From Akkermansiaceae bacterium (GTDB lineage Bacteria; Gemmatimonadota; Gemmatimonadetes; Palauibacterales; Palauibacteraceae), in the NCBI GenBank assembly GCA_964195715.1, contig CAXMRU010000057.1, forward strand, positions 5,015 to 69,014: a DNA stretch of 64,000 bases. Reading direction: 5' to 3'. Position 1 is the first letter of the stretch, and the number at the start of each line of letters is the position of its first letter. Below, one piece after another: positions 271-43,388 of the stretch. Position numbers and translations under genes: made by a program. The notes beneath the pieces are model-generated. The model worked only from the letters and a program-made list of their open reading frames with translations, ran no database searches and had not been told where the DNA came from.

Positions 271-1452
271 ATGTCAAAGCACGAAGCTGTAATTCCCGGG
301 AACAGGTCTTCGAGGAGCGGCCGCTGGCTGGCAGTCTGCTTGCCCGCCCTGGCACTGTTCGCGCTGGCCTGTAGCCAGGAAGCCGAGCAGGGAGCGGCAG
401 TGTCAGCGAGCGATGAGCCGGCAGTAGAGATCTGGGCACACCCGGTCCGGAGCGGGATCAGAGTGTCCGCCCCTCTCGACCTCAAGGCGTCCTCCCGCAC
501 AGTCGTGTGGGGAATCGATGGAGTGGTGCGCGCCGTCATGCGGTATCAGCCCTCGAAGGGCGAGTACGCAGTGTTCGGATTCCGGGACCGTCAGCCTGTG
601 GAGGTGGCGAGCCCCGTACGTCTGGCTGTCGCGGAGAACACCGGCGTATTCGTGTTCGACGACTCCACGGGCATGCTGGATCTCTACTCACCTGGCGGCC
701 AGCATTTGCGCGGATTCGATCCCCATATGCGGCCGTCGATCCTCGAGATCTCTCGACGTCCCTTGCGGCTCACGTACGGGGTGCGGGCCTTCGGCGAGGA
801 CACGATTCCGACCCTGGCCGTCATTCAGACGAACTTCCTGGGGCAGGATCCGGACACGTTGCTCTCTCCCGATGTCGGGCCCGAGTCGCTGCGACAGGCA
901 CCTGCAGTACGCGGCAACCTCGTCGCCACACCCTCCGTGAGCGGCCTGTGGCTGTTCGCGAAGGCGATATCGGACACCGTATTCGAGGTGTCGGGCGTGG
1001 GGCCTTCCCGGAAACTGGTCCTGCCGGAGACCTTTGCCCTTCGGGCGGGCGTGATCGCAGATCTCCAGCAGCAGATTCTGTGGGTGGTCACGCCGCGCCC
1101 CACCGGCGGACTGGACTACGAGGGTTATGACATCTCCGACAGCGGCGATGGCGCCGAGATCATCGACGGGGCTACGGCCTACCTTGGCGCCCGGTCCACC
1201 CCTCAGTACTTCTCGGCCAAGGTCGCGTTCGACGGGACCGTGTCCGGTTGGTGGCGCTCGGAGAGAGGTGTGTTCTCTCCGAGAGGTTACGACATGCGGA
1301 TCGATGATCTGCGCACCGGCGCGGTTCAGGCTCGCGAAGGGCGCACGCAGAGGCGGGCTGTCAAACTTGAAACATGGGAACGCGAACTGCAGGCACTCGA
1401 AGAAGCACGTGAGGAGCGCGAGGTTCTCCGTAAGGAGGAAGAGCTCGAGTAG
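271..1452 (+). CDS. hypothetical lipoprotein with C-terminal coiled-coil
   Basis: 393-aa ORF. N-terminal signal with lipobox-like LALFALAC-S. Charged Glu/Arg-rich coiled-coil tail. No recognisable catalytic motif. Confidence 0.45.
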   Translation: MSKHEAVIPGNRSSRSGRWLAVCLPALALFALACSQEAEQGAAVSASDEPAVEIWAHPVRSGIRVSAPLDLKASSRTVVWGIDGVVRAVMRYQPSKGEYAVFGFRDRQPVEVASPVRLAVAENTGVFVFDDSTGMLDLYSPGGQHLRGFDPHMRPSILEISRRPLRLTYGVRAFGEDTIPTLAVIQTNFLGQDPDTLLSPDVGPESLRQAPAVRGNLVATPSVSGLWLFAKAISDTVFEVSGVGPSRKLVLPETFALRAGVIADLQQQILWVVTPRPTGGLDYEGYDISDSGDGAEIIDGATAYLGARSTPQYFSAKVAFDGTVSGWWRSERGVFSPRGYDMRIDDLRTGAVQAREGRTQRRAVKLETWERELQALEEAREEREVLRKEEELE

Positions 1453-1585
1453 GAGTAGGACAGCCCAGGCGTTTCCGGTGCGTTCCGGCCACAGATGACA
1501 AGAGGGCCCACCCCACACGGGACCGGCCCTCTTCTCCGATCGCTCCTCGGTACTTCTCGACGAGGCTCTCTGAAAAGTCCCTCTG

Positions 1586-3013
1586 TCAGATGCCGCCCTT
1601 GGCCACCTCGTCGTACAGGCGGGCGATCGTCTCGATGCCCTTGTGATACGTCGCCATGTCTATCCACTCGTTCGGTGCGTGCGCGTTCCCACCTGGTGGC
1701 GCGAAGCCAAGCAGCAGCACCGGCCCCTTGAATATTTCCTCGAACAGGGGAATGATCGGGATCGATCCCCCTTCGCCGATGTAGACCGGTCGCTGCCCGA
1801 ACGAATCCTCGAGCGCCTTCGCCGCCGCCTCGACCAGGGGACTGTCAGGATTCCCCGCCCAGGGCCAGCCGCCGTGCGATGGAACGACCTTCACGGTCAC
1901 GCCCTCGGGCGCTAGCGACTTGATGTACTTCGTGAACAGCTCTGCGATCTCGTCCGGGTCCTGGTCCGCCACGAGTCGCATTGAGATCTTGGCGCTCGCC
2001 TTGGCCGGCAGGACGGTCTTCGAGCCGTCCCCCGTGAAGCCGGAGATCATGCCGTTCACGTCAAGCGCCGGTCGGTACCACAGGCGTTCCAGCGTATTGT
2101 AGCCTTCCTCGCCGCCGAGGGATGGGGCGCCGGTTTCCTCCAGGAACTCCTCGTCCGTGTACGGGAGCGCGCTGACTTTCTCCCGCTCGCTGTCCGTCAT
2201 CGGGCGTACGCGATCGTAGAACCCGGGAATGGTCACGCGGCCCTCGTCGTCCTTGAGCCCGGCAATCATCCGGGCAAGGGCGATCGCCGGGTTCACGACC
2301 GCCCCTCCATAGCTGCCCGAGTGAAGGTCCGTGGCCGGCCCGTCCACGAACACTTCCAGGTAGGCGATGCCGCGCAGACCCGTACCGATCGAGGGAATGT
2401 CGATCCCCAGCATCCCGGTGTCGCTGACGATCACGGCGTCGCACGACAGACGCGCCGCCTGCTCATGCAGGAATCTCTCCAGGTGCGTGCTACCGACCTC
2501 TTCCTCTCCCTCGATGCACAGCTTCACATTGACCGGCATCCCGAATCCGCCCAGGAGACGAGTCTCGAGGGCCTTGATGTGCATGTGGACCTGTCCCTTG
2601 TCATCGTTCGTGCCGCGCGCGTACATACGGCCATCGCGCACGTCGGGCTCAAAAGGCGGCGAGTCCCAGAGATCGATCGGATCCACCGACTGCACGTCGT
2701 AGTGCCCGTACACGAGCAGCGTGGGCGCGTCCGGATCGACGATCTTTTCGGCCACGACGAATGGATTCCCGTCGGTCGGAATGATCTCGACGTTGTCCAT
2801 CCCCGCCGCACGGATGGCGTCCGCCAGCCACTCGGCGCAGCGAGCCAGGTCGCCCTCGAAACCCGTCTCCGTGCTTACGCTGGGAATGCTCAGGAACTCC
2901 ACGAGCTCTTTTTCAAATCGCTCACCGTTCGAGCGGAAGTATGCGGTCAGGTCTGCACTCACGATTCTACTCCGCTTGTTTAATGTTGCGTGAAGATTCG
3001 CCACTCCGCTCAA
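1586..3013 (-). CDS. M20 family dipeptidase / peptidase (ArgE/DapE/PepV-like)
   Basis: 475-aa ORF with M20 signatures (LLVYGHYDVQ, ARGTNDDKGQ, metal-binding His/Asp/Glu pattern). A GTG at 2962 preceded by GGAG would remove the 47-nt overlap with the upstream dehydrogenase, so the start is uncertain. Confidence 0.8.
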   Translation of the reverse strand: MSGVANLHATLNKRSRIVSADLTAYFRSNGERFEKELVEFLSIPSVSTETGFEGDLARCAEWLADAIRAAGMDNVEIIPTDGNPFVVAEKIVDPDAPTLLVYGHYDVQSVDPIDLWDSPPFEPDVRDGRMYARGTNDDKGQVHMHIKALETRLLGGFGMPVNVKLCIEGEEEVGSTHLERFLHEQAARLSCDAVIVSDTGMLGIDIPSIGTGLRGIAYLEVFVDGPATDLHSGSYGGAVVNPAIALARMIAGLKDDEGRVTIPGFYDRVRPMTDSEREKVSALPYTDEEFLEETGAPSLGGEEGYNTLERLWYRPALDVNGMISGFTGDGSKTVLPAKASAKISMRLVADQDPDEIAELFTKYIKSLAPEGVTVKVVPSHGGWPWAGNPDSPLVEAAAKALEDSFGQRPVYIGEGGSIPIIPLFEEIFKGPVLLLGFAPPGGNAHAPNEWIDMATYHKGIETIARLYDEVAKGGI

Positions 3014-4247
3014 GAGCCATTTCGAGAGCGGCAGCTAGAAGGCCGTGCTCCGCGTTTCCTGCCCGGCACACCACCTCATCCACGGCGTCTCCGACCGTGG
3101 CCTCGATTGATTCGAAGACGATATGAGGCTGCAGCGGGAAATCGGAGCGGCTCTGGCACGCGAAGGCGTGCGCCGTGCCACAGCTCGCTATGATGTCTGC
3201 CATTACGGTGAATCGCTCGTCGGCCTCTTGCTCAACCGACGTATCGCCCGGGGAATCTGCCGCGAACGGGTGATTGGCCCCGGCAACGATGGATCGGACT
3301 CCCGCGTCGTGCAATCGGTCGAGAACTGTACGGTCCAGCGTTCCGGACGCCGCAGCAGCGACGAGCATGTCGGCGGGGGTATCGAACAACCCCTCCGGCG
3401 ACACCCAAAGAGAACCATCGCGCACCGCCGGCAGCGTGTTTCCTTCCCGACGGAGCAACAGCTCCTCGATCTCGTTCACCGATAATCCCGCCTCGTCCAG
3501 GATGCCACCCCGCGCGTCCACGATGCCCACGATTCGGAATCCGGCTCGTACCATGTAGAGCGCCGTCGCTCCACCCACAGTCCCGAAGCCCTGGAGCAAC
3601 ACTCTGGTATCGGAGGGTTCATGTCCCTGATGGTGGAGAAGACGCAAGGCGGACTGGGTCACGCTGTACCCGGTCACGAGCGCGAAAACACGGGCCTCCT
3701 TGCCGGCCAGGCCGTACTCCGGTGGCACTGGCTGATCGAGGCCAATGTGCATGAGCTCACAGCGGCGGCCGAGAGCTTCGCCGTCCAGTCCAAAATGGCC
3801 GCGCAGCACGCCGATCTGCGGATGTCCGACCCCGATGTCGCGGCATATCGGGATCACCTCATCGATCTCGCTCACGTTCAGGTCACCGGCCGTGCCGTAC
3901 CGAGTAAGGAGCTCGGAGCGGATCGCGCCGAACCAGCGTTCCAGAACCTGCGCCTTGCGAGGGTCTGATGGATCGAAGTCGATGCCCGACTTCGCGCCAC
4001 CGATGTCCGGGCCGGCGAACGCGAATTTCAGCTCCATCGCCTTTGCCAGGAAGGTCACTTCGTCGCGGGTCAGCCCGACCCGCATGCGCGTGCCGCCGCC
4101 GGCCGCGCCTCCCTTGAGGCTGTTGATGACGAGCCATCCCCGGGCGGCGGTTTCCCTATCGTTCCACTCGAAAACGATCTCGGGCGCCGCCCGGAAGTAC
4201 TCCTGATAGTCCTGCCAGACCTCTTCGTCGCGCGTGTTGCCTGCCAT
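2967..4247 (-). CDS. Glu/Leu/Phe/Val-family amino-acid dehydrogenase
   Basis: Start set at the internal ATG (MAGNTRDEEV...). The ORF's upstream extension is Arg/Pro-rich junk. Motifs: LKGGAAGGGTRM (glycine-rich region of ELFV dehydrogenases) and NAD-binding GFGTVGG. Confidence 0.75.
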   Translation of the reverse strand: MAGNTRDEEVWQDYQEYFRAAPEIVFEWNDRETAARGWLVINSLKGGAAGGGTRMRVGLTRDEVTFLAKAMELKFAFAGPDIGGAKSGIDFDPSDPRKAQVLERWFGAIRSELLTRYGTAGDLNVSEIDEVIPICRDIGVGHPQIGVLRGHFGLDGEALGRRCELMHIGLDQPVPPEYGLAGKEARVFALVTGYSVTQSALRLLHHQGHEPSDTRVLLQGFGTVGGATALYMVRAGFRIVGIVDARGGILDEAGLSVNEIEELLLRREGNTLPAVRDGSLWVSPEGLFDTPADMLVAAAASGTLDRTVLDRLHDAGVRSIVAGANHPFAADSPGDTSVEQEADERFTVMADIIASCGTAHAFACQSRSDFPLQPHIVFESIEATVGDAVDEVVCRAGNAEHGLLAAALEMALERSGESSRNIKQAE

Positions 4248-4275
4248 CACCTGGCCGGGCTGCGCGAGACGCGGA

Positions 4276-6267
4276 TCAGCCTTCGACCGCCTCCCACTCG
4301 TTGTTCGATCGATCCAGATCCGGGTAGTAGCCGTCCGGATCGATCGTGACTTTCTGCAGGTCGCCCGAGGTGGCCACCGTACCGGTCGCCGTCCGTGTAC
4401 CGGCCCACACCGAGGCTGGCCACACAACCGTTTCGGACGAACCATCGGCGTACTCGAGCCTCATCTCCACGGGCATGACGCCGCTGGACAGGTTCGACAC
4501 GGTGATGTCGGCGGAACCGGCGCCAGGCAGGACTTGATCCAGCGCTTGATCCAGCGTCGCCTCGCCAAAGAACCAGGGCTGCCAGAACCAGTCGAGGTCC
4601 GCGGCGGCGGCTTCCGACATCATCGCGAAAAAGTCCCACGGCATGGGGTGCTTGAACGCCCAGGTCGCCGCGTAGTCCTTGTAGAACGCGTCGAACTTCT
4701 CCTGGCCGATCATGTGCCCAATGGTGTGGAGCAGCATCCCCGGCTTGCTGTACGCGGCGACATTCTGACCGAACATGTGCTCGGCGTAGTCCGCGTGACC
4801 CATGATGGGCTCCTGCATCTCCATCTGGACGACCATCTGGTAGCCCCGGTCGTCGCCCGGACGCGTGACAGGATTCTCGTAATAGTCGGCCATGGCGAGC
4901 GACGTATTGTACGTCGTCAGGCCTTCGTCCATCCAGGGATACGCCATCTCCTTCGTGCCGACGATCATCGGCATCCAGAAGTGGCTCAGCTCGTGCGTAA
5001 CGACGCCGTTGAGCCCCCGATCCTTGGCCTGGTGGGTGATGAACGTGATCATCGGGTATTCCATCCCGCTGACCTCGGGCGGACCCATGGCAGCCGTAGC
5101 CTGCGGATACGGATACGGAAGGATGTAGTCAGAGAAGAACTCGATGGCGTGCTTGGCATACAGGGTTGCCGGGGCCCAGTGGTCCATCGCCGGATCGAAC
5201 ACGTTCTGGATCAGCGCCCTGCCCCGCTCGTGCCCGGTCTCGGCGCCGGTGACGTGCCACACGTAGGTACCACCCGCGGCGAACGCGAAGTCGCGTACCA
5301 TCTCGGCTTCGAGGCGCCATGTATGCCAACCGTCGTCCGACGGGGCCGTCGCGTTGCCGGCTTCCCTGTCCTCGATGCTAACGACCTTAACGACCGTGTC
5401 GAGCGCGGCGGCAGACTCGAGAGTTTGCACAGCCTCGGGCCGCAGGACCTCGTCCGCGTTCGTGAGCATACCGGTGCCCACGACGAGCCATCCCTCGGGG
5501 ACCGTCACGTCCACCGTGAAGTTGCCGTAGTCCGTGTAGAACTCGCCGCTGCCCAGGTAGGGGGATTGGTCCTGCCCGAACACGTCGTCGAACACTGCAA
5601 CCTGGGGATACCACTGGGCGAGCTGGAAGATCTCGTTGTTCAGGTGGCCCATGCGGAAGCCGCCGCTTCCGGCGACGACGAACGACCAGTCCACCTCGAG
5701 CTCGATCACACCGCCGGAAGCGAGCGGCTCCGGAAGCGAGATCACCGCGAGCGTTCCGTTCACACGGTACCCGGGATCCTGCGGCCCGCGCTGCTGCTGT
5801 CCGAAGAATCGCCGGGACGGAAGCTCGTCGAGGTCCATGCCGCCGGCCGCGACGCGGTCAAGCGTCATACCGCCGGTGATAGTGGTACTCCGGCCGCGTG
5901 GCGAGCCTTCCGCGAACACATTCTGGTACAGGTGAAGTACGATGACCGGACGCTCGTGTGGCGTCTCGTTGCGGATCGTGATCGTCTCACTCGCCGTCAC
6001 GAGGGCGGTCTCCGGCTCGATCTTCACATCGATGTCGTAGTCTACCCACTGCTGCCAGTAGTCGGGGCCCGGTCGGCCATCCGCCGTGCGGGTGCCCGCC
6101 TCGATCGCGGCAACGTAGCCGTCGGGGGGCTGCACCGGGTTGAATACGGGATAGTCGACGACCAGTCCTTCCCCGTCCGCCGGGTTGCTAGCCTGAGCCG
6201 CGACCTGCGGCGCAGTGGCACCCACCATGATCGCGATCGCTGTGACTCGATAACTCCACACTTTCAT
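4276..6267 (-). CDS. secreted M1-family zinc metallopeptidase
   Basis: Signal peptide MKVWSYRVTAIAIMVGATAPQVAAQA. HExxH (VTHELSHFWM) followed by WMDEGLTTY, the gluzincin third-ligand Glu. About 664 aa. Confidence 0.7.
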   Translation of the reverse strand: MKVWSYRVTAIAIMVGATAPQVAAQASNPADGEGLVVDYPVFNPVQPPDGYVAAIEAGTRTADGRPGPDYWQQWVDYDIDVKIEPETALVTASETITIRNETPHERPVIVLHLYQNVFAEGSPRGRSTTITGGMTLDRVAAGGMDLDELPSRRFFGQQQRGPQDPGYRVNGTLAVISLPEPLASGGVIELEVDWSFVVAGSGGFRMGHLNNEIFQLAQWYPQVAVFDDVFGQDQSPYLGSGEFYTDYGNFTVDVTVPEGWLVVGTGMLTNADEVLRPEAVQTLESAAALDTVVKVVSIEDREAGNATAPSDDGWHTWRLEAEMVRDFAFAAGGTYVWHVTGAETGHERGRALIQNVFDPAMDHWAPATLYAKHAIEFFSDYILPYPYPQATAAMGPPEVSGMEYPMITFITHQAKDRGLNGVVTHELSHFWMPMIVGTKEMAYPWMDEGLTTYNTSLAMADYYENPVTRPGDDRGYQMVVQMEMQEPIMGHADYAEHMFGQNVAAYSKPGMLLHTIGHMIGQEKFDAFYKDYAATWAFKHPMPWDFFAMMSEAAAADLDWFWQPWFFGEATLDQALDQVLPGAGSADITVSNLSSGVMPVEMRLEYADGSSETVVWPASVWAGTRTATGTVATSGDLQKVTIDPDGYYPDLDRSNNEWEAVEG

Positions 6268-6411
6268 CACTCTCCACCTCCCCATCGTCCTCTACCTCCG
6301 TGTAGTGTTCTATCTGACGCCTGATCCCCTCCCGTCAGTAACAGATATGGTCCGGTTCCCGCTGCCTGTTCAACAGGCTGTTCAAGAGGTACAGCCATTA
6401 AGACGGGCAAC

Positions 6412-7803
6412 CTACTTCGGAGCCTCGAAGTCCGTCCAGTTGAGGAGAGGCAACAACTGGTGCCTGCCTTCGTGTCGCCAGTCAGGCGGTGGCCACGCCA
6501 CTGAGCCGAGTGGCGCGATTCGGCCCACACCCAGACGAGTCGCGAGCACAGCGAGTTTCCGGAGTCCTTCCGCGCCAGAGAATCCGAACGTCTGGATCCT
6601 CCCCTCCAGGGGCCTCAGCACCTCTTCAAGGGTCTCGAGGTCCGGAACCCGGTGAACCCAGACTACGCGAGGCAGTGATTCTGTCCGGGCCGCCGGGCTC
6701 TCGCTGACCAGGATCGTCCAGGCCAGGGACTCGCCCGGCGCTTCGACTCCCAATCCTCCGTCCCCGTACCCTCCGAATTCAAACATCGCACGCGCCGAGC
6801 GGATCGCCACGGCTTCCTCCGCCGTCGGATCGGGAGGAGGGTGATCCCGGGTTCGCTCCTCGAGAGCGCCGGCGAGACGGCTCACGAATGCACCGGTAGC
6901 CAAGCCAACCACGTACACAAGGCGAGGCGACACGCAACCCTGCTGATCGTAAGCACATACGTCCCTGGCGAGGGCCGCAGCCGCTTCCTCCTGTGGAGTG
7001 TCCGGCAGCAAGACGGCCACGCCGGTTCGGGGACCGTACGAAATCAGGTCTGTATGCGCCGGCAGCGCGCCCCGCACAGCCTCCACCGCCGCAGCACCGC
7101 CGTACACCACGACCTTACCGGCCCATTTAGTCCACTCACGCCACGCCGCCGGGAAGTGCGATCCGGGCCACCATGTCGCAGCGAGCGAGCGACCCAGCAG
7201 TGGATCTTCCTCGGCCAGCAGACGAGCGAACATCGGGAGCAGCCCGGGCTCGGCCTCTGGCAGCTTGCACAGAACACCCGAGCGGGCCAGAAGAGCCCGG
7301 ATCGTGGCCGTAATCGCTACGCCGGGAACGTTGCCGGCAAGTACCTGCAGCACCACGGGCGCGCCGACGGCTCTACGCCGCCGGACGCCCGGACCTTCCC
7401 ATCGCTCATCCCGCACGAAGCCGTCGAGCACTGCGGGGCCGCCCAGTTCCGAGTCGACCAGTCCCGCGAGTGCGTCGGTCGTCCACGTCCGGGCCATCCC
7501 GTCCAGGGTGTCACGTATCAGGCGGTCGTCCCACCCGAGTTCGGCGTGAAGGAGCTCCCTCGTGGCAATGCCCGCGCTCCCTTCGGCCGTGAGCCGCGCG
7601 GCGGCGGCCCCGATCGCCTGGATCACGTCTGTGGTCGCCCGATGAGCCCGCGCTTCGAGCGCTCCCTCCCTGATGTGCGCCGCCACGATCCCGGCCTCCG
7701 TGCCTGACAGGGACGGGGCCCGGAAGGCGCTCCCGGCATGTGTGCGTCCCTCCAACCACTCGGTGGGCGTCGGAAGCCCCGGAAGGTGCCAGGCTTCAAA
7801 CAT
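6412..7803 (-). CDS. LuxC-like acyl-CoA (fatty acyl) reductase
   Basis: About 463 aa, start chosen at MFEAWHLPG. Aldehyde-dehydrogenase-like fold with the LuxC-type catalytic Cys context (YDQQGCVSPRLVYVV) and GNVPG. Overlaps the upstream LuxE-like gene by 8 nt. Confidence 0.6.
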   Translation of the reverse strand: MFEAWHLPGLPTPTEWLEGRTHAGSAFRAPSLSGTEAGIVAAHIREGALEARAHRATTDVIQAIGAAAARLTAEGSAGIATRELLHAELGWDDRLIRDTLDGMARTWTTDALAGLVDSELGGPAVLDGFVRDERWEGPGVRRRRAVGAPVVLQVLAGNVPGVAITATIRALLARSGVLCKLPEAEPGLLPMFARLLAEEDPLLGRSLAATWWPGSHFPAAWREWTKWAGKVVVYGGAAAVEAVRGALPAHTDLISYGPRTGVAVLLPDTPQEEAAAALARDVCAYDQQGCVSPRLVYVVGLATGAFVSRLAGALEERTRDHPPPDPTAEEAVAIRSARAMFEFGGYGDGGLGVEAPGESLAWTILVSESPAARTESLPRVVWVHRVPDLETLEEVLRPLEGRIQTFGFSGAEGLRKLAVLATRLGVGRIAPLGSVAWPPPDWRHEGRHQLLPLLNWTDFEAPK

Positions 7804-8914
7804 GCTCCTGCGCCTCCAGAAGCTCCGCGGTCGCCAGCGAGCACCCACGGGGCGGCGCTCCCTCCGTGCGGCCGATCCATTCGATTCCCTCACCGACGAT
7901 GCGGCCCCTGTCTTCAGTGAGCACCGAGCACACGCTGCCCAGGTTCGCCAGATCGTAGTGACACAGGATTCCGGTCTGGCCGTCCGGGAGCTCCTCGAGT
8001 GTCACGGGATCAAGCACCCACGACCGCAGCCACGGCGGACCCAGCAGCGGCACGCCTGGATCGCCATGGCCGTAGCGCTGCGACAGCAGTTCGGTCATCC
8101 CGAACTCGTTGACGATCGTCTCGAGCCGGAGACCCAGCTGGCCGCACAGACCTGTCAGAACGGCGGCGCGCTCCAGGCCCTCACGCGCCTTCACGCCTCC
8201 CGTATCCATCAGTCTGGATCCCGATGGGAGCGGGGACGTGATGGATCGTCCGTCCGTCAGCCGCTCCAGCCATTCAGCGAATCCGAGCGTCGTCCCCAGA
8301 AGGCACAGCGGCAGGTCCAACCGGACGGCGTACGCCACCACGCCGTCCAGCGCCGTCCAGTCGACTCCGTCCGCGGTCGCAACGCTGCCTCCAAGCTCAC
8401 TCGCGAAGCCCGCGCGAACGTCATCCAGCATCCAGCCGAGCGATGATGTCGGATCATACGTAAAGGATGGTGGTAAAGTCACTATGTTTGCTGCGACTTC
8501 ACCCTCGAGGACGAATGCGCGGAACGTGGCGCGAAGCGAAGCACGATACAGCTCCAGAGACCGGACCAGGTGACGCCCCCTCCGTGAAGACCCACGGCTC
8601 GTCCCACTCGTCAGGAATGTGAGCTTCGCCCCACTGGAAGGTCCGACGATCAGGTCCACCGCGCGAAAGGCAGCCGTCGGAACCGGTGGCACGTCCCTCC
8701 ACCCGGACACATCGCCGGGCCTCACACGTCGGGTTTCGCAGTACTTGCGGTATGTCGAGTTCTCCGCGAACTGCAATGCGAACGCGCGCCGCGCCCACTC
8801 ATTCAGCCGATCGTCGTCCCATTCGCTCCCACCCGGCATCCACCGATCGAACGCGGCCGCACACTCGGCCGCCAGTGAGTCGAAGTCGTTCCCAACCGGC
8901 GTGTGTATCGTCAT
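7796..8914 (-). CDS. LuxE-like acyl-protein synthetase (acyl-AMP forming)
   Basis: Start set at MTIHTPVGNDF. Adenylate-forming signature FLTSGTSRGSS. Overall resemblance to the LuxE acyl-protein synthetase family. About 372 aa. Confidence 0.6.
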   Translation of the reverse strand: MTIHTPVGNDFDSLAAECAAAFDRWMPGGSEWDDDRLNEWARRAFALQFAENSTYRKYCETRRVRPGDVSGWRDVPPVPTAAFRAVDLIVGPSSGAKLTFLTSGTSRGSSRRGRHLVRSLELYRASLRATFRAFVLEGEVAANIVTLPPSFTYDPTSSLGWMLDDVRAGFASELGGSVATADGVDWTALDGVVAYAVRLDLPLCLLGTTLGFAEWLERLTDGRSITSPLPSGSRLMDTGGVKAREGLERAAVLTGLCGQLGLRLETIVNEFGMTELLSQRYGHGDPGVPLLGPPWLRSWVLDPVTLEELPDGQTGILCHYDLANLGSVCSVLTEDRGRIVGEGIEWIGRTEGAPPRGCSLATAELLEAQEHV

Positions 8915-9041
8915 ACGCGAAATGTGTGCGCGGGAACCCGGAGCGACAAGCGGAGGACCTGCGGTGGGGAGGAAGTTGCCGGCGCGGGCACGGTCATGGT
9001 CATGGGCCAACTGGTCCCGCGCCCGCCGCACGTGTGCTGAT

Positions 9042-10355
9042 TCAGTGCGTATCCAACCTACCTGTGTGATGTTCTCCTTTACGTACCCACTTTACCTCCA
9101 CGGCATCTTCGTGTTCCGCATCGGCCAACACCTGACGTAACGTCGCTACGCTACTACAGTTCACCTTATCTACCTCAACCACGACGTCCCCATCTCGCAG
9201 GCCCATCCGATCCGCCGGAGTGTCCCGGATCACGCGCATCACCAGGAGGCCATCGTCCACCCCTTCGAAGTATTCCGCCAGGCTTCCGCCGAGCTCCCGG
9301 AATTCCGCTCCGGCCACTCTCATATCGCTGAAAAGCAGCGTCCGCAACTGGCCCGGAACGGGGCGATGCGCAACGTAATAAGCCCATTCTCCGCGGGGAT
9401 CGGTGCGCGTCGTCACGGACAGGGTCAGGCCCAGCGAATCGGTTCCCAGCGTCCGGACCTCGGCGCGCAGGCGGACCAGCGAATCAAGGTGCACCCGGGC
9501 TGACCGAAACGATGAATCCCGCACCCTGACCAGGCGCCTTGCGAGCTCCTCGTTTTCCCACACGTAACGTGGCAGATCCACTCGCACTTCCACGCGTGCT
9601 CCACTCTCCTCATCCTGGGTCACGTCTGCTTCGGACCGCTGGCCCTCGACGACCCTGGCCTGCGCCAACCTTCCGTCGTGCTCCCGCATTCTCTGCAGGA
9701 TTACGCCTGCCTTCTCCGGGTCCCCGACCTCGATCTTGAAGCTGCCCTCATCATCTTCATGGAAGAAGACGAATGCGTTACCGTGCGTACGAAGTGATTC
9801 CAGGCGAACCTCGACCTCATTCAATCGGGCTCGGAGGGAGGGGATCCGCACCACGCGCACGCCTCCTGACGCGTCCTCTGCGAGCTCCTCCGGAAGACCG
9901 AAGAACATCGTCCGCACGTTCATCCACGGATCGGCGGGACGCATTTCGGGCGTGACCCGGATCGTCATTCGGCCGGACGCCCGAGCCAGGCCGAGCTGCA
10001 CCGGCACACCGGCCTCCAGTCCGAGCAGAGCCGCCCGCCCCTCCAGCGTCGTGACGTCCAGTCCATCCACCGACAGCAGCGTGTCCCTTGCCTGCACACC
10101 GGCGAGATCGGCCGGGCCATTCACGACCACCGAGCTCACGACGGGGGGCTGACCACACCTTTCCTCGGCCCTCATGAGCGCATCGCACCGTTCTTCCAGC
10201 AGGACACCGATGCGGGCTTTCTCCTCCTGGACCCAGTTGACCTCTGGCTCCTGCGCTGACAGGCGGCTCGTTCCCGCGACTGTCAAGATCAGCATCGTGG
10301 CGACGACGGCCAGACTCGCTGACAGGCGTCTCATGTTGTGTCGCAACGTCTCCAT
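9042..10355 (-). CDS. secreted PDZ-domain protein (two PDZ domains)
   Basis: Signal peptide. Two PDZ-like segments (GLDVTTLEGRAALLGLEAGVPVQLGLAR and GLRDGDVVVEVDKVNCSSVATLRQVL). No protease catalytic triad recognised. Confidence 0.55.
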   Translation of the reverse strand: METLRHNMRRLSASLAVVATMLILTVAGTSRLSAQEPEVNWVQEEKARIGVLLEERCDALMRAEERCGQPPVVSSVVVNGPADLAGVQARDTLLSVDGLDVTTLEGRAALLGLEAGVPVQLGLARASGRMTIRVTPEMRPADPWMNVRTMFFGLPEELAEDASGGVRVVRIPSLRARLNEVEVRLESLRTHGNAFVFFHEDDEGSFKIEVGDPEKAGVILQRMREHDGRLAQARVVEGQRSEADVTQDEESGARVEVRVDLPRYVWENEELARRLVRVRDSSFRSARVHLDSLVRLRAEVRTLGTDSLGLTLSVTTRTDPRGEWAYYVAHRPVPGQLRTLLFSDMRVAGAEFRELGGSLAEYFEGVDDGLLVMRVIRDTPADRMGLRDGDVVVEVDKVNCSSVATLRQVLADAEHEDAVEVKWVRKGEHHTGRLDTH

Positions 10356-10425: not shown

Positions 10426-11124
10426 TCAGTACTCGGATCCTGTCATGCGCAGGGTCTGATCCAATTGACCGGCCAGGTCCTCTCTCTCGTCTACCAGCTG
10501 GAACAAGAAGTTGTTGAGCACGGGATCCGCTGGAGCCTCGCGTAGTGCGTCGCGAGATGCATCGATCATCGCATCGAGATGCGTGATTCTCTCAGCGACC
10601 GCCGCGGGCCCGGCTTCCCACCTGTTCGCTTCGAAATCACCGTCTCGAAGCTGCTGCAGGTCTGCAACCGTCCGCAGGTATGCCTCGGCCGGCTCAATCA
10701 CCATCAGGGATTCGGGGGACGCATCCGTCAGCGGCCCCACGCTTCCATTCCGGTCATCGGCTACGGTCGCCGCACCCTGTGCTCCATCGGGTCCGGCATC
10801 GATTCTCTGACCCACCATCAGACCGGCAGCGAACAACGCCACCACGGCCGCCGCCTGCAGCGGCCAGCTCATCGCCTTACGCCAGATCGGTGAGACGGTC
10901 GCCGCTCGCCGAGTTTCCAGGCCCAGCTGCTCCTCGATGCGATCCCACTCGCCCTCCGGTGGCTCGAGATCGGGCAGTCCGGATAAGGCCATCCGCATAC
11001 GGCTCATCTGCTCGTACTCGCGAGCGCACTCCTCACAGTCAGCCACGTGCTCCAGCCCGCCGGGTACGCTCCCAGGGTCGTCGAGCAGTGCCGAGATCCG
11101 TTCTCTATTCAGATGCTCAGGCAT
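10426..11124 (-). CDS. anti-sigma factor, zinc-binding (ZAS/ChrR-like) with one TM helix
   Basis: N-terminal HVADCEECAREY (HxxxCxxC zinc motif). Central TM segment WPLQAAAVVALFAAGLMVG. Its 8-nt overlap with the upstream ECF sigma gene is typical of sigma/anti-sigma pairs. Confidence 0.65.
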   Translation of the reverse strand: MPEHLNRERISALLDDPGSVPGGLEHVADCEECAREYEQMSRMRMALSGLPDLEPPEGEWDRIEEQLGLETRRAATVSPIWRKAMSWPLQAAAVVALFAAGLMVGQRIDAGPDGAQGAATVADDRNGSVGPLTDASPESLMVIEPAEAYLRTVADLQQLRDGDFEANRWEAGPAAVAERITHLDAMIDASRDALREAPADPVLNNFLFQLVDEREDLAGQLDQTLRMTGSEY

Positions 11125-11665
11125 GATTACCCGCTTCGTTTCTCTCCCGGGCCGGCGCCAGCAGATTTCGCATGCGCGCCCGGGCTTTGTGCAACTGCGA
11201 TTTCGACGTTCCCACGGCCACCCCCATCCGACCCGCGATCTCTTCGTGCGTCAGGCCTTCCACGTCGTGCAGTACGAGGACCTTTCTATAGCCCGGCGAC
11301 AACTGGTCCATCGCCTGGCTGAGCACTTTCTGGTTCAGCACCGTCTCGTCCGTCGGCGGTGGAGACGACCGCGGTTCGGCAGCAGCCTCCACGTCCGGCC
11401 TCTTGCTCTGTCGTCGCAGCCGGTTCAGAGCCGCGTTCACCGCCAGACGATGCATCCAGGTGCCGAATGACGACTCTCCCCGGAACAGGTGCAGCTTCTG
11501 AAATGCTCGCACCCAGGCGTCCTGCGACACGTCCTCCGCGAGGTGGTCGTCACCGACCATCCTCCGAACCACGGAGTACACGCGGCCACTGTGCGCCGAG
11601 TAGAGTGCTGCCATCGCGCGGCGGTCACCCTTCCTGGCCGCCGCGATCAGCTGAACGTCAGACAT
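11117..11665 (-). CDS. ECF (sigma-70 family, group 4) RNA polymerase sigma factor
   Basis: 182 aa. Region 2 (DVSQDAWVRAFQKLHLFRGESSFGTWMHRLAVNAALNRLR) and region 4 HTH (LTHEEIAGRMGVAVGTSKSQLHKAR). Confidence 0.85.
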   Translation of the reverse strand: MSDVQLIAAARKGDRRAMAALYSAHSGRVYSVVRRMVGDDHLAEDVSQDAWVRAFQKLHLFRGESSFGTWMHRLAVNAALNRLRRQSKRPDVEAAAEPRSSPPPTDETVLNQKVLSQAMDQLSPGYRKVLVLHDVEGLTHEEIAGRMGVAVGTSKSQLHKARARMRNLLAPARERNEAGNHA

Positions 11666-11734
11666 TCGCCTCGTTTCTCATGATCGTCGGTATTTGGACG
11701 GGTAGGGGAGTCCCACGGTTGTCTGCTCGGGGGG

Positions 11735-12637
11735 TCAGTCCGCGGTGGGGTCGCCTTCCAGCCGCCGCATCAGCCACGGCGTCGCCAGGTAAGCGGCCAT
11801 CGCCACCATCAGCCCGACCATCGCATCGATCCCGTAGTGGAATCGCCCGTATACCGTCCCGAGGGCTAGAGACACCGCGAAGGGCGCCATGATCCAGAAG
11901 ACTCGCTTGCTCTCGCGCCCGGTAGCGAACCATGCCGACATGGTGGCCGCCACATGCGAGGAGGGGAACGCTGTGCCCTTGGAGGATCCGGACTCGAGGA
12001 TCGTGTGTACGAGCAAGAACAGCTTCCCGTCCGACGCCTCGCCGGCGATCTGCGGGAAGTCGTAGCGGGGACCCGCCACAGGAAAGACCGAAAAGCACAA
12101 ATAGCAGACGAAGAAGGCCAGGGCGATCGTGAACGAGGCCCGCTCCAGCGCCCTGGGCCCCTTCAGCAGGAATGCGGCCACCGCCGCTCCCGGCACGATA
12201 AGGTAGTACGACAAATACCCGAGGTGCAGCATCTCGGAGAACCAGAGGCGGCCGTACCAGTCGCTGAACACCATGGCCAGCTGGGTCCCGAACAACAATT
12301 CCTCCCACATCATCACCGTGGGATCGAAGTAGCCTGTCACGTGGAGCTGGTTCAGTGGCGCCAGTTCCAGGTACAGCAGCGGTGTAAGCGCGACCGGATA
12401 GAACAGCCGGAAGAACAGCACGAATCCGTTCGTCGGGAGCGTGAACGACGCCATCCACCAGATGAGTCCCATGGCGGCCAGGTGCAGCACGGCGATCCCG
12501 ACACCGAAGCCCGTGATGCTCGTCAGGGCAACAACACCCGTCGCCGCCAGATACGCCATCGTGAGGTAATCGACTGCGAGCGGCCCGCGGCTGCGCATTT
12601 CCGTTTCGGCTCTGAATCCCTTGATCACCTGAGCCAT
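11735..12637 (-). CDS. PAP2 / sphingomyelin-synthase-like integral membrane protein (candidate sphingolipid head-group transferase)
   Basis: Polytopic membrane protein. PAP2/SMS-type catalytic motifs PSSHVAAT and RFHYGIDAMVG (an HYxxD-type motif). Part of the tightly packed lipid operon. Confidence 0.55.
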   Translation of the reverse strand: MAQVIKGFRAETEMRSRGPLAVDYLTMAYLAATGVVALTSITGFGVGIAVLHLAAMGLIWWMASFTLPTNGFVLFFRLFYPVALTPLLYLELAPLNQLHVTGYFDPTVMMWEELLFGTQLAMVFSDWYGRLWFSEMLHLGYLSYYLIVPGAAVAAFLLKGPRALERASFTIALAFFVCYLCFSVFPVAGPRYDFPQIAGEASDGKLFLLVHTILESGSSKGTAFPSSHVAATMSAWFATGRESKRVFWIMAPFAVSLALGTVYGRFHYGIDAMVGLMVAMAAYLATPWLMRRLEGDPTAD

Positions 12638-13623
12638 CCGTGTTCACGGTACCAGCGACCGGTCTCCTCCATCGCCTCGCGCAGTCGCGTGGTGGCGCGC
12701 CACCCGAGTGAGGCTTCGGCTTCTCGCGGATCGGCCGTCCAGTCCAATCGCGAGAGGTCGTCCGCCGTACGGCGATCGAATTGCGGGGGCATCCGGACGA
12801 GTCGCGCCGCGGCCTCCGCCACAGTCCCACCAACCTGCCAGAGCGCGTTCGGAATCTTCACAAGGCGGACGGGCTTTCCTACGGCGTTGCCCAGCGCCTC
12901 GCCCATGTCGGCCCAGCTCACGATCTCGGGGCCCACGATGGGGATTGGCTTGAGGTCCACATCCGGACGCGCCACGGCACGAATGACCGCATCGGCCACG
13001 TCCTTCACGTACACCGGCTGCAGCCGACCCTTGCTGGTCGGCACCGGCAGCAGGCCGGTCTTCGCCACCTTGAACAGGTTCAGCGAGTCCTCGTCTCTCG
13101 GACCGTAGATGCCTCCGGGCCGCAGGATCACACCCATCATCGCCCCGGTCTGCTCCGAGAGCACCTGGAACAGACGGCGTTCGCCGGCCAGCTTGCTCTC
13201 GCCGTATGCGCTCGTCGGCCGATCGGCGGCGGGGCCGCTGTCGCCGGCCCGACGGTCCGGGCCGCGCGCCGCCAGGCTGCTGACGAGGACGAAGCGGCGC
13301 ACTCCGGCGTCAACGGCCCCGAGCGCCAGCCCCTGCGTGCCCTCGGCGTTCACCGCGAAGTAGTCGGCATCCGACTTCGCGCGGGTCAGACCCGCCGAGT
13401 GCACCACGACATCAACTCCTTCGAGCGCAACTGCCAGTTCCGCGGCAGACCGCACGTCTGCCGTCACACGCTCTATTGGGAGAGACTCGATCCACCTGAG
13501 ATTGCTGGTCTTCCGCACAGTGCACCGAACAGCCCACCCCTCGACGAGGAGTGCCTCGGCCACGTGGCTGCCCAGAAATCCCGTAGCCCCGGTGAGCAGA
13601 ACGGTGTGGGAAGTGCCGGACAC
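12625..13623 (-). CDS. NAD(P)-dependent epimerase/dehydratase-family SDR (candidate 3-ketosphinganine / ceramide reductase)
   Basis: N-terminal Rossmann VLLTGATGFLGSHV and an extended-SDR fold. 5-nt gap to the upstream N-acyltransferase-like gene and 13-nt overlap with the downstream PAP2 gene. Confidence 0.75.
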   Translation of the reverse strand: MSGTSHTVLLTGATGFLGSHVAEALLVEGWAVRCTVRKTSNLRWIESLPIERVTADVRSAAELAVALEGVDVVVHSAGLTRAKSDADYFAVNAEGTQGLALGAVDAGVRRFVLVSSLAARGPDRRAGDSGPAADRPTSAYGESKLAGERRLFQVLSEQTGAMMGVILRPGGIYGPRDEDSLNLFKVAKTGLLPVPTSKGRLQPVYVKDVADAVIRAVARPDVDLKPIPIVGPEIVSWADMGEALGNAVGKPVRLVKIPNALWQVGGTVAEAAARLVRMPPQFDRRTADDLSRLDWTADPREAEASLGWRATTRLREAMEETGRWYREHGWLR

Positions 13624-13628: not shown

Positions 13629-14762
13629 TCAGAGTTCCCTATCGTACATGCGGAATCGCTTGTACGCCGTCGAGCCCAGTTTCTCCAGCGGCTTTCGCAT
13701 CGGGTAGTTGTGCTCGAGGATCCACCCGAATTCCCCGGCGACTATGCCCTTCGCGGAGCCCTCACGAAAGATCCGCAGGTACAGGAGGTTGTCGATCCCC
13801 TTGTGCCGGAATTCCGGCACAAGGCCCAGCGTCAGCACCCGGCACATGTCGATGCTCTTCGCCCGGTGCAGCACTTTCAGAAGACCGAACGGAAACAAGC
13901 GACCACGCGCCTTGATCAGGGCCTGATTGTAGTCCTTCAGCCACAGGGCGAAGCCTATGGGCTCCCCGTCCTCGTTCTCCGCGAAGATGACCTGCTCGGG
14001 ATCCTTCATCACGGCCACCTTGAGCTCGTGGGCCATGAACCGGATCTCGTCATCCGTCATCGGAACGAAGCCCCAGTTCTCTTCCCACGCCTTGTTGTAC
14101 ACGTACAAGACGCGTTCGAGCTCGGCCGCGAAGTCTTCCTTGCGCAATGTGCGAAGGGACACGTTCAGTCTCTTCGAGAGCCGTTCCTCTCGCTTGAGCA
14201 GGAATTCCGGTGGACTGTTGTTGTCCAGGTAGTAGGCGACCATGCCCATGGCGGCGTGGAACCCCGCATTCTCGATCAGGTCCTCGTAGTAGTCGGGGTT
14301 GTACGGCATCATGATGGTCGGTGGACGATCGAACCCCTCGACCAGCAGCGCGGCGCTCTCGTTCGTAGAGAAGTTGGCCGGGCCCCGTATCACCTCGAGA
14401 CCGCGATCTCGCAGCCAATCGGATGCGGTGTCCAGGAGCTCGTTTGCCACTTTCTGCTCGTCCACGCACTCAAAGAACCCGAAGAACCCTACGGGCTCGT
14501 CGTGGTAGGCGACGTGGTTCCGATTATGGATTGCGACGATCCGACCGACCGTTTCGCCACCTCGCATGGCGATGTACGGCTGGACCTCGGAGTGCTTGTG
14601 GAAAGGGTGCTTCCCCCGATCGAACATGACCTTCATGTCGCGGAGCAGGGGCGCGACCCAGTTCGGGTCTCCCTCGTAGATGCGATACGGCAGGTCAAGA
14701 AACCGGCGGAACTCCTTCTTGCCGTCCGCCGGAATGACTTGTACGTCCGGCGACCCCGTCAC
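13629..14762 (-). CDS. N-acyltransferase-like protein (candidate bacterial ceramide synthase)
   Basis: About 377 aa if started at a GTG that overlaps the serine palmitoyltransferase (Spt) gene's TGA stop as GTGA. The longer ORF would overlap Spt by 300 nt. The function is inferred mainly from operon context with Spt and the reductase. The acyl-CoA N-acyltransferase fold was not verified. Confidence 0.45.
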   Translation of the reverse strand: MTGSPDVQVIPADGKKEFRRFLDLPYRIYEGDPNWVAPLLRDMKVMFDRGKHPFHKHSEVQPYIAMRGGETVGRIVAIHNRNHVAYHDEPVGFFGFFECVDEQKVANELLDTASDWLRDRGLEVIRGPANFSTNESAALLVEGFDRPPTIMMPYNPDYYEDLIENAGFHAAMGMVAYYLDNNSPPEFLLKREERLSKRLNVSLRTLRKEDFAAELERVLYVYNKAWEENWGFVPMTDDEIRFMAHELKVAVMKDPEQVIFAENEDGEPIGFALWLKDYNQALIKARGRLFPFGLLKVLHRAKSIDMCRVLTLGLVPEFRHKGIDNLLYLRIFREGSAKGIVAGEFGWILEHNYPMRKPLEKLGSTAYKRFRMYDREL

Positions 14763-15961
14763 GTCACCTCTATCCCGTGTCCGAGGACCCCGAACTTCTT
14801 GCCGACCCGTGCGAGTTGCTCGAGCACGAAGTCGAGTTGCTCGTCGGTGTGGGTCGCCATGTAGCTGGTACGCAGGCAGCACCTGCCCTCGGGGACGGCC
14901 GGTGGCGCCACCGGGTTCGTGAAGACCCCGGCGTCGAACAGTTCCCGCCAGATCAGGAACGTCTGCTCTACCGGACCGATGAGAATTGGAATGACGGGCG
15001 TTTCCGTGCGCCCGATATCGAAGCCCAGAATCGTAAGCTCCTTCATCATCCGGTGCGTATTGGCCCACAGCCGTTCCTGCCGCTCCGGCTCGGTACGGAT
15101 GATCTCCAGGGCCTTGATGACGGTCGCGACGGACGCAGGAGGCATGCTGGCGCTGAAGATCAGCGCCCGCGCGTTGTTCTGCAGGTAGTCGATAACCAGG
15201 GCATCACCTGCGACGAAGCCACCGATCGAGGCGAGCGACTTACTGAATGTACCGCTGATAAGGTCCACCTCGTCGGTCAGGCCGAAGTGGGCCGCCGTGC
15301 CCGCGCCGTGCGGCCCGAGCACGCCCAGGGAGTGAGCGTCATCCACCATGATGGCCGCCGAGTATTTCTTAGCCAGCGGGACCAGGTTGGGAAGATCGGC
15401 GATGTCGCCTTCCATGCTGTACACGCCGTCCACGACGATCATCTTGCCACGATCGCCCTTCACTGCCTCGAGCAGTCGCTCGAGATGGTCGAAGTCAGCA
15501 TGTCGGAACCGCTGGATGTCGCCGAAGCCAAGTCGCGCACCGTCCTGTATGCATGCGTGGTCCAGCTTGTCCAGGAAGACCGTGTCGTTGCGCGCTATCA
15601 GGGCCCCGATGGTACCGAGGTTTGTCTGATAGCCGGTGCTGAAGACGAGCGCCGCTTCCTTGTTTACGAAATCGGCCAGATCTTCTTCCAGCTGGTCGTG
15701 CAGATCGAGGTTCCCGTTCAGGAAACGGCTTCCCGTACAGCCGCTGCCGTACTTGTCGAGAGCCGCCTTGGCAGCCTCGATGATCCTGGGGTCGTGAGTA
15801 AGCCCCATGTAGTTGTTGGAACCCACCATGACCTTCGTGTGGCCGTCGATGACGACTTCGGTGTCGGCCGAAGACTCGATTCTCTGGAAGTACGGATACA
15901 GCCCCGCCGCCCGCAGCTCCCGGGTGATGGTGAAGTTCGCGCACTTCTCGAACACATGCAT
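14759..15961 (-). CDS. spt: serine palmitoyltransferase-like alpha-oxoamine synthase (PLP-dependent)
   Basis: Start set at MHVFEKCANF. Very close to Sphingomonas Spt by eye: GSNNYMGLTHDP, GSGCTGSRFLNGN, VFSTGYQTNLG, RFRHAD, GVYSMEGDIA, GTFSKSLASIGGFV (PLP-lysine). About 400 aa. Confidence 0.85.
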   Translation of the reverse strand: MHVFEKCANFTITRELRAAGLYPYFQRIESSADTEVVIDGHTKVMVGSNNYMGLTHDPRIIEAAKAALDKYGSGCTGSRFLNGNLDLHDQLEEDLADFVNKEAALVFSTGYQTNLGTIGALIARNDTVFLDKLDHACIQDGARLGFGDIQRFRHADFDHLERLLEAVKGDRGKMIVVDGVYSMEGDIADLPNLVPLAKKYSAAIMVDDAHSLGVLGPHGAGTAAHFGLTDEVDLISGTFSKSLASIGGFVAGDALVIDYLQNNARALIFSASMPPASVATVIKALEIIRTEPERQERLWANTHRMMKELTILGFDIGRTETPVIPILIGPVEQTFLIWRELFDAGVFTNPVAPPAVPEGRCCLRTSYMATHTDEQLDFVLEQLARVGKKFGVLGHGIEVT

Positions 15962-17250: not shown

Positions 17251-17476
17251 AACAAAAGCCGCCTGACGGCTCCGGCACGTGACGGCGAGGCTCATACCGT
17301 ATCGGCTCGAAACACGTCAGACGGCCATCTTCGGTCGTTCGATTGATTGAAACGCCACACCCCCTCCCAGTGTTCCCCACCATCCGATTCCCGATCTCGA
17401 TTCTTGCTTTCACCGCAGGCGAGGAACACTTTGGCTCCCCGGAATCAACCATGACAGGTCGCGGATTGGAAGGCTA

Positions 17477-19120: not shown

Positions 19121-19150
19121 GCGACACACGGCGGAGCAAAGGAGGGACGC

Positions 19151-19474
19151 ATGGCCGACCTCAAGAAAATCGCTCTCTCGATGCAGCAGTTGTTCCTGCT
19201 GATCGTGGTGGTGGCCGTAGTGTTCTTCGCGTTCTTGAACCTGGATTCGGTCACGATTGACCTGTTCTTCACCACGGTAACCACGAGTATCGCCCTCCTC
19301 CTGCTCGTGCCCCTGGCCGCGGGAATGCTCCTCGGCTGGCTCGGCGGTCGCCTGCGCGGCAGGAAGAAGGAGCAGGCGAAGCTCGGCGCCGGCCCGGCGG
19401 AGTTGCCGGCCGGTGACGAGGCCGTGAAAGACGTGGACTGGGAGAACCTGGACCTCGACAAGATCGAGGTCTAG
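19151..19474 (+). CDS. LapA-family (DUF1049) small inner-membrane protein
   Basis: 107 aa with two TM helices and the typical LapA N-terminus LFLLIVVVAVVFFAFLN. Confidence 0.55.
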   Translation: MADLKKIALSMQQLFLLIVVVAVVFFAFLNLDSVTIDLFFTTVTTSIALLLLVPLAAGMLLGWLGGRLRGRKKEQAKLGAGPAELPAGDEAVKDVDWENLDLDKIEV

Positions 19475-43171: not shown

Positions 43172-43327
43172 CTGTACTCCGCACTAAAACGTTGTTATTA
43201 AACAAGTTACCGCTACGTCTATGTCGGGGCAGCGTCGCCTCGAGAACCTCAACCCGCTCGGAGTGGATCTTCCTGTTCCACGGGGCGAGGAATATACGGC
43301 GGGTCCGTGTGTGAGCCAAGAAAACAA

Positions 43328-43343: not shown

Positions 43344-43365
43344 TCTTGCGACTCCGCCGTTCCTG

Positions 43366-43381: not shown

Positions 43382-43388
43382 ACTGCAA

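Follow-up and report, generated by a model that had tools for sequence, protein, structure and literature searches.

An overlapping LuxE/LuxC-type gene pair beside sphingolipid-type and envelope-stress genes in a Gemmatimonadota genome

A 64,000-nucleotide (nt) stretch of contig CAXMRU010000057.1 (assembly GCA_964195715.1, positions 5,015 to 69,014 of the forward strand; hereafter the window), assigned to the Gemmatimonadota, carries on its minus strand two adjacent genes encoding a LuxE-like acyl-protein synthetase of 372 amino acids (7796..8914) and a LuxC-like acyl-thioester reductase of 463 amino acids with an aldehyde dehydrogenase (ALDH) fold (6412..7803). They are the last two genes of a nine-gene block transcribed in the order Spt (serine palmitoyltransferase-like), GNAT-fold acyltransferase, short-chain dehydrogenase/reductase (SDR), PAP2-type membrane protein, extracytoplasmic function (ECF) sigma factor, anti-sigma factor, PDZ protein, LuxE, and LuxC. 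A sequence-only reading of the window had described the pair at this position and strand, an 8-nt overlap between the two genes, the motifs FLTSGTSRGSS in LuxE and DQQGCVSP in LuxC, and their placement downstream of the Spt, GNAT, SDR, and PAP2 genes with the sigma, anti-sigma, and PDZ genes in between. Direct reading of the sequence and family matches bore out each of these points. The reported absence of luxA, luxB, and luxD was upheld as well, since a Pfam scan of the approximately 55 open reading frames of the window returned no luciferase (Bac_luciferase) or LuxD-type family; the pair thus stands in the window without genes that are a feature of the bacterial lux (bioluminescence) system.

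For comparison, one genome per species was scanned, which yielded 80 Gemmatimonadota loci with LuxE. Fifty of these, with a LuxE identity of at least 46% to the window protein, were grouped as clade A, and the remaining 30 (40-46%) as clade B. The closest locus, L001 from a Gemmatimonadota metagenome-assembled genome, showed 92% LuxE identity. Clade C comprises 80 further loci (L085-L164) from a metagenome scan seeded with distant members of the subfamily; these came from many phyla, human-gut contigs included, with GC contents of 36-74% and LuxE identities of 27-46%. At E<=1e-30, the LuxE subfamily as a whole comprised 491 cluster representatives. Neighbour-joining placed clade A on a separate branch, and its median identity was 41% with clade B and 33% with clade C.

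Window LuxE matched PF04443 with 39 bits (gathering cut-off 24.9). When a profile built from 23 LuxE relatives was compared with the PDB, the sole match was the LuxE chain of Photobacterium phosphoreum (7XC6_E, E=1.7e-27, residues 40-363), and the single-sequence search of window LuxE against the same solved chain gave E=1e-10; the two proteins also have nearly the same length (372 and 373 amino acids). Electron cryomicroscopy has assigned the functional elements of LuxE to a Lys238/Arg355 pair and to a C-terminal tail, TRxxKGCxLS, with the acylated Cys364 (PMC9157457). In the alignment, K242 of window LuxE corresponded to K238 of the P. phosphoreum protein, G348-R349 to R354/R355, and the tail R356-G-C358-S-L, located 15 residues from the C-terminal end, to KGC364SLS. 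The P-loop (T102-S-G-T105), K242, G348-R349, and R356-G-C358-S were kept in 80/80 Gemmatimonadota loci, and the conserved Lys and the RGCS tail were also present in distant LuxE relatives, that is, across clades A, B, and C. In window LuxE, this short tail with its acylated-type Cys stands where the C-terminal subdomain of ANL enzymes would be. An AlphaFold2 model of LuxE reached a predicted local distance difference test score (pLDDT) of 88, and its best structural matches in Foldseek were PaaK1/2; 7XC6_E was not among the top 50 PDB matches, and PaaK-type ligases were returned instead. The fold match therefore supports the superfamily only, and the assignment rests on sequence, by which the protein is predicted to be a LuxE-family acyl-protein synthetase with an adenylate-forming PaaK-like fold and a C-terminal Cys tail.

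LuxC matched PF05893 with 178 bits (cut-off 21) and aligned with 7XC6_A over 350 residues (E=5e-23). The segment YDQQGC290VSP was aligned to YDQQAC(296)FST of 7XC6_A, so that C290 corresponds to Cys296 in the numbering of PMC9157457. Conservation of residues Q287, G289, C290, V291, S292, and P293 reached at least 95% among the 47 LuxC sequences of clade A and at least 90% among the 30 of clade B, and the catalytic cysteine was kept in nearly all of these 77 aligned sequences. Among the residues lining the cleft entry, mapped from PMC9157457, T169, Y291, Q402, and H442 were kept, while S166 was replaced by V and D443 by E; the alignment with the solved chain stops short of the distal cleft, and a comparison of fatty and small substrates is confined to the cleft-entry residues. 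The protein is thus, as far as its sequence indicates, a LuxC-family acyl-thioester reductase and a distant member of that family.

The 8-nt overlap of the two genes lies at 7796..7803 (-) and reads ATGTTTGA, with the ATG of LuxC at 7803-7801 and the TGA of LuxE at 7798-7796. A Shine-Dalgarno sequence (GGAGG) precedes the ATG of LuxC by 9 nt, and in most of 49 related loci the genes likewise overlap by 8 or 4 nt. The conserved overlap together with the Shine-Dalgarno sequence therefore argues for translational coupling of LuxE and LuxC. LuxC directly followed LuxE in 41/42 clade-A loci, 30/30 clade-B loci, and, outside the Gemmatimonadota set, 68/80 clade-C loci, the remainder being cut contigs. 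LuxE::LuxC fusions of approximately 790-820 amino acids occurred in the same subfamily (P0279, P0293, P0311, and P0321). In other members, a zinc alcohol dehydrogenase was fused to the LuxE N-terminus (P0273, P0348, and P0272), and some relatives in clade C contained an SDR gene within the LuxE-LuxC operon; these arrangements fit an order of reactions from acid to aldehyde to alcohol.

The features shared with the LuxC-LuxE systems of Photobacterium and Vibrio (7XC6; PMC9157457) are the division into two proteins, a synthetase of approximately 370 amino acids without the usual C-terminal subdomain and with a [KR]GCxL tail Cys and a catalytic Lys and Arg, and an ALDH-fold reductase with YDQQxC in which Q402, H442, and Y291 also align. 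In the lux system, an acid is converted through acyl-AMP, acyl-LuxE, and acyl-LuxC to the aldehyde (PMC9157457, PMC12041015). We infer a Lux mechanism for the window pair because of the conserved residues, the strict and coupled order of LuxE and then LuxC, and the LuxE-LuxC fusions. LuxE would use ATP to adenylate a free acid, and the acyl group of the resulting acyl-AMP would be moved to Cys358 on the flexible C-terminal tail. The tail would then swing into LuxC and hand the acyl group to Cys290, where reduction of the thioester by NADPH would release the free aldehyde. That the pair carries out LuxE-LuxC-type chemistry is, judging from residues and gene order, very probable.

The genes upstream of the pair were examined for their families and for their arrangement into transcription units. 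The Spt-like alpha-oxoamine synthase (14759..15961, minus strand, as are all genes of the block) gave NF047600 as its best NCBIfam match, with 553.7 bits (cut-off 640), above BioF and Kbl; its best-scoring model was thus the Bacteroidota-type serine palmitoyltransferase model. The GTG start of the GNAT gene (13629..14762) overlaps the Spt stop codon TGA (GTGA). It encodes 377 amino acids with weak Acetyltransf_1 and Acetyltransf_6 matches, the same length as its nearest homologue P0121, and its context suggests a putative bacterial ceramide synthase (bCerS). An epimerase-type, NAD-dependent SDR in a CerR-like position (12625..13623; PF01370, 102 bits) and a PAP2_3 membrane protein (11735..12637; PF14378, 56.5 bits), a candidate head-group transferase or phosphatase, complete a group of four genes that overlap or almost touch one another. 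The ECF sigma gene (11117..11665; Sigma70_r2, Sigma70_r4_2, and Sigma70_ECF matches) overlaps by 8 nt with the anti-sigma gene (10426..11124; NF052375, 38 bits, under its cut-off). It is followed by the gene for a secreted two-PDZ protein without a protease domain (9042..10355), which has an N-terminal signal-like segment, PDZ_6 and PDZ_2 matches at residues 363-431, and a weaker match at 65-130.

A promoter-like element, TTGTCG-N17-CACATT (8921..8949, minus strand), ends 6 nt before the LuxE ATG (8914), and no Shine-Dalgarno sequence precedes this ATG in the window. In 31/50 clade-A loci, the end of the pattern TGTCGC-N17-18-CA[CG]ATT-N6-7-ATG coincided with the start codon of LuxE, compared with a background rate of 0.005 per 180 nt, and the whole window contained only three matches. 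We consider that the element may be a sigma-70-like promoter giving rise to a leaderless luxE-luxC transcript. A different, ECF-type promoter, GACAACC-N16-CGTCCAA (11694..11723, minus strand), is predicted between PAP2 and the sigma gene, approximately 30-55 nt ahead of the start of the latter. At least 25 loci have a conserved form, GCAACC-N17-CGTCCAA, approximately 55 nt 5′ of the sigma gene, and at least 25 have the motif CAAC-N-GTC[CG]A[AC] at 51-70 nt 5′ of that gene; the ECF sigma factor is probably autoregulated. An ECF-type promoter upstream of LuxE, which would make the pair a part of the sigma regulon, was also searched for and was not found. Intrinsic terminators between the units were not convincing, with counts below the shuffle expectation.

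The gap between PAP2 and the sigma gene was the widest and most variable of the block across loci, with a median of 130 nt and a maximum of 4.7 kb. Unrelated genes, some of them on the opposite strand, were located there in L020, L043, L047, and L050. In L042, a Ser/Thr kinase gene with a long C-terminal regulatory region (1112-2923, plus strand) occupied the usual place of PAP2 5′ of the sigma gene; the contig ends 3 kb upstream of that gene, and this stretch contains no PAP2. Another insertion concerned the PDZ-LuxE junction: a 4HBT_2 thioesterase gene (95 bits; 8769-9344, minus strand, in L032) and a gene for a small membrane protein lay between PDZ and LuxE in L032, L038, and L039. Such an enzyme next to LuxE would provide free acid and in this respect correspond functionally to LuxD. 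The block is predicted to split into at least three transcription units. The earlier suggestion that the pair belongs to a sphingolipid operon is therefore improbable, given the separate promoter-like elements and the insertions between PAP2 and the sigma gene, and the pair is probably not cotranscribed with spt.

Within clade A, which spans approximately 50 species-level Gemmatimonadota genomes, the nine-gene order was intact wherever the contig was long enough. All loci compared had the PDZ gene no more than 1.5 kb upstream of LuxE (41/41), the anti-sigma gene next to the sigma gene (41/41), and PAP2 no more than 5 kb from the sigma gene (32/32); Spt was at most 9 kb away from LuxE in 30/31 testable loci. 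This arrangement was kept over a considerable depth, with LuxE identity down to 46% and Spt identity down to 71%. A search from the GNAT side recovered the same clade only (at least 59% identity); two of the four GNAT-anchored loci looked up end before LuxE, and the other two, L081 and L082, also carry the LuxE-LuxC block. The PAP2|ECF junction was kept within 5 kb in 32/32 loci compared with 18/26 for the junction of LuxC with the downstream M1 peptidase (Fisher p=0.0008, for loci that are phylogenetically related and not independent), which is suggestive of a greater stability of the inner junctions of the block than of its downstream flank. In the closer genomes, synteny extended for more than 30 kb on both sides, comprising upstream the 2-oxoacid dehydrogenase E1/E2 genes, aconitase, patatin, and M23 peptidase, and downstream M1 peptidase, GDH, and M20 peptidase.

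The Spt association ended at the border of this clade. None of the 30 clade-B loci and none of the 80 clade-C loci had Spt near LuxE-LuxC. The sequence-only reading had considered the neighbourhood of spt unusual and proposed examining it in relatives; the association is real, in clade A and in L081 and L082, and it is confined to one clade of Gemmatimonadota, so that this comparison upholds the observation and does not bear out the functional reading attached to it. In clade B, many of whose members are labelled Longimicrobiales, the pair was kept with no Spt, sigma, or PDZ neighbour. An Amidohydro_3 gene preceded LuxE, overlapping its start in 18/30 loci (L051-L080; for example 3183-4892, plus strand, in L051), an ABC-2 transporter (exporter) gene followed the pair, and a divergent Pyr_redox_3 flavoprotein gene was found in 21/30 loci.

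Clade-C loci (n=80) contained no homologues of the seven genes upstream of LuxE. Their operon consisted of LuxE, LuxC, an ABC ATPase, a BPD_transp_1 permease, an NMT1/THI5-type binding protein (a ThiXYZ-like transporter), and an SDR. In 20/25 loci tested, LuxE was preceded on its own strand by a thiamin pyrophosphate (TPP) riboswitch (RF00059), in most cases at a distance of 70-200 nt (for example L098 9792-9921, L089 9795-9910, L105 4633-4758, and L116 904-1034). Rfam searches of the window and of four clade-B loci gave no riboswitch match, and neither the window nor clade B had a ThiXYZ-like transporter or an SDR beside the pair. These operons share with the window the same LuxE subfamily, the conserved Lys and RGCS tail, and the order of LuxE and then LuxC; the window pair differs in having no riboswitch, NMT1-type transporter, or adjacent SDR, and in being followed by the M1 peptidase gene. 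One possibility for clade C is a salvage route in which a thiamin-pyrimidine carboxylic acid is reduced through the aldehyde to hydroxymethylpyrimidine (HMP). Our literature search found no description of TPP-riboswitch LuxE-LuxC-ThiXYZ-like-SDR operons and no link of LuxC/LuxE with thiamin.

Considering these results together, we favour, with moderate confidence, the explanation that the window pair is a separate, self-contained LuxE/LuxC-type acid reductase. The two proteins would form a carboxylic-acid reductase with its own transcription unit, apart from the sigma/anti-sigma/PDZ unit and the Spt-GNAT-SDR-PAP2 unit. Its likeliest substrate would be a long-chain fatty acid, as the analogy with Lux and the nearby lipid and envelope genes suggest; for this part, taken by itself, we see even chances. 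Hints of a fatty or acyl substrate are the 4HBT_2 thioesterase next to LuxE in three loci and the sphingolipid-type genes, patatin-like lipase, and LapA-domain protein nearby. The likelihoods expressed here for the chemistry, the fatty substrate, the sphingolipid connection, and a supply of Spt by LuxE concern separate claims; more than one of these can hold, and the likelihoods do not have to add up to one.

Several results weigh against this explanation. The NCBIfam equivalogs for LuxE and LuxC of true lux operons (NF052244 and NF052251) have cut-offs of 550 and 750 bits, of which window LuxE scored 45.9 and LuxC 93.8. Both proteins are far under these cut-offs and therefore not orthologues of the light-organ enzymes, and the similarity to the solved LuxC-LuxE pair is distant, as the E values and the Pfam score of LuxE given above indicate. 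There is no terminator-like site between PDZ and LuxE, making read-through possible, and in L015, L027, and L037 LuxE overlaps the PDZ gene, so that it is cotranscribed with upstream genes at least sometimes. Lastly, the TPP riboswitch and ThiXYZ-like transporter of clade C point to a thiamin-related, small, non-fatty acid there, which weakens the fatty-acid analogy.

Placed beside lipid genes, the pair could also be a working accessory of the sphingolipid or outer-membrane lipid pathway, its fatty aldehyde or alcohol entering or modifying the lipid made by Spt, GNAT, SDR, and PAP2, which corresponds to the second idea of the sequence-only reading. The gene order held across a deep clade, the 30/31 loci with Spt nearby, the two GNAT-anchored loci that carry the pair, and the contrast between the PAP2|ECF and LuxC|M1 junctions (subject to the relatedness of the loci) are in its favour. 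However, the units have separate predicted promoters, unrelated genes lie between the modules in some loci, L042 has a kinase instead of PAP2, and Spt is missing near the pair in clades B and C. The long-range synteny of clade A moreover means that the Spt/LuxE adjacency may be inherited order near the replication origin, the LuxE-LuxC/Spt region being approximately 35 kb from dnaA. We know of no bacterial sphingolipid step that requires a free aldehyde. A working link of the pair to the sphingolipid or envelope-lipid pathway is, in our view, unlikely. A narrower form, in which LuxE-LuxC is dedicated to outer-membrane sphingolipid biology by providing a long-chain aldehyde or alcohol for a ceramide-type lipid (for example of the alkyl/alkenyl or acetal type), or recycles fatty acids freed during envelope stress sensed by the ECF/PDZ module, is less probable still.

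We regard it as equally doubtful that the pair acts on a small, soluble carboxylic acid, the likely kind of substrate in the relatives with TPP riboswitches, and that the position among lipid genes is incidental. The clade-C operons with their transporter genes, SDR, and riboswitch suggest such an acid, as does the clade-B pair lying after Amidohydro_3 and before the ABC-2 exporter; in addition, a LuxE domain acts in O-antigen tetronate synthesis in Vibrio cholerae, as cited in PMC4772473. Neither the window nor clade B, however, has the riboswitch, transporter, or SDR of those operons beside the pair, clade A is a separate branch at a median of 33% identity to clade C, and the thioesterase insertion and lipid neighbours fit an acyl substrate.

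A further explanation would make the pair the output of the adjacent ECF sigma/anti-sigma/PDZ envelope-stress module, remodelling lipids under stress. The sigma, anti-sigma, PDZ, LuxE, and LuxC genes were never more than 1.5 kb apart (41/41), insertions of unrelated genes occur 5′ of the sigma gene, and three loci show an overlap of LuxE with the PDZ gene. The ECF-type motif of the sigma gene is nevertheless absent upstream of LuxE, which has a different -35/-10-like element, and the pairs of clades B and C have no sigma or PDZ neighbour, so that we give this explanation little weight.

The weakest proposal is that of the sequence-only reading, in which LuxE activates acyl groups and carries them to Spt and/or the ceramide synthase in place of an acyl carrier protein (ACP) and acyl-ACP synthetase: a Pfam scan found no ACP or AMP-binding synthetase family in the nine-gene block, and the acyl thioester on the flexible LuxE tail formally resembles an acyl carrier (PMC9157457), but LuxE is always followed by its reductase, translationally coupled or fused, so that the acyl group most likely goes to the dedicated acceptor LuxC and not to Spt, the window Spt scores best with the Bacteroidota-type model, no Spt lies near the pair in either of the other clades tested (B and C), and bacterial Spt can use acyl-CoA (PMC11087976), so that the pathway lacks no step for want of an ACP, and we consider the proposal very improbable. 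The widest gap inside the window's block is 127 nt, therefore an ACP gene would not fit within it. The Caulobacter-type ceramide cluster (PMC11087976, PMC11334938) likewise combines Spt, a GNAT-type acyltransferase, and a nearby SDR, but it has an ACP and an acyl-ACP synthetase, whereas window LuxE is not an AMP-binding acyl-ACP synthetase, there is no ACP, and a dedicated reductase is attached.

LuxE/LuxC genes without luciferase were already known. In contrast to the lux genes of luminous bacteria, LuxE here precedes LuxC, the genes overlap, luxA, luxB, and luxD are missing, and the organism is a non-luminous member of the Gemmatimonadota. Non-lux LuxE/LuxC genes occur in Aeromonas flagellin glycosylation islands (PMC7874193), and a LuxE domain is found in RfbN of V. 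cholerae (cited in PMC4772473). Both cases, compared here by gene context only, share with the window LuxE/LuxC-type enzymes beyond bioluminescence, beside envelope or surface biosynthesis genes; they sit with ACP, ketoreductase, and glycosyltransferase genes, whereas the window pair sits with an ECF sigma module and sphingolipid-type genes. What is added here is a clade-specific, stable neighbourhood of sphingolipid-type and envelope-stress genes. We found no paper linking LuxC/LuxE with sphingolipids, Gemmatimonadota, or TPP riboswitches, and Gemmatimonadota do not appear in the Black Sea sphingolipid paper or in its supplements.

Non-luminous LuxE-LuxC pairs are common in databases and almost uncharacterised, and the residues and the promoter-like element defined here are available for this group. 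Clade A consists of marine and sediment Gemmatimonadota, a phylum whose lipids are barely known. If the functional link were true, it would represent a new step in bacterial sphingolipid or envelope-lipid metabolism; a dedicated supply of aldehyde or alcohol for sphingolipids, or the recycling of fatty acids, would be a lipid step new to bacteria. For now, the two genes encode an ordinary enzyme couple; their context is interesting but of unproven functional meaning, and the more surprising result is that related pairs, those of clade C, are under TPP-riboswitch control.

The surroundings of the block in the window, which has a GC content of approximately 64%, include the M1 peptidase gene identified by the Pfam scan as the next gene downstream of LuxC (4276..6285, minus strand). 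The plus-strand stretch 16105-19474, divergent from spt, encodes an M23 peptidase, a patatin-like phospholipase carrying a DUF3376 tail, and a small protein with a LapA domain; in many relatives, these additional envelope or lipid genes accompany the sphingolipid-type block. A replication-origin region occupies 41488-53575, with parB (41488-42522), parA (42374-43171), gidA/mnmG (43389-45728), mnmE, yidC, dnaA (50354-52171), and dnaN (52472-53575). The cumulative GC skew reached its minimum at approximately 50-52 kb of the window.

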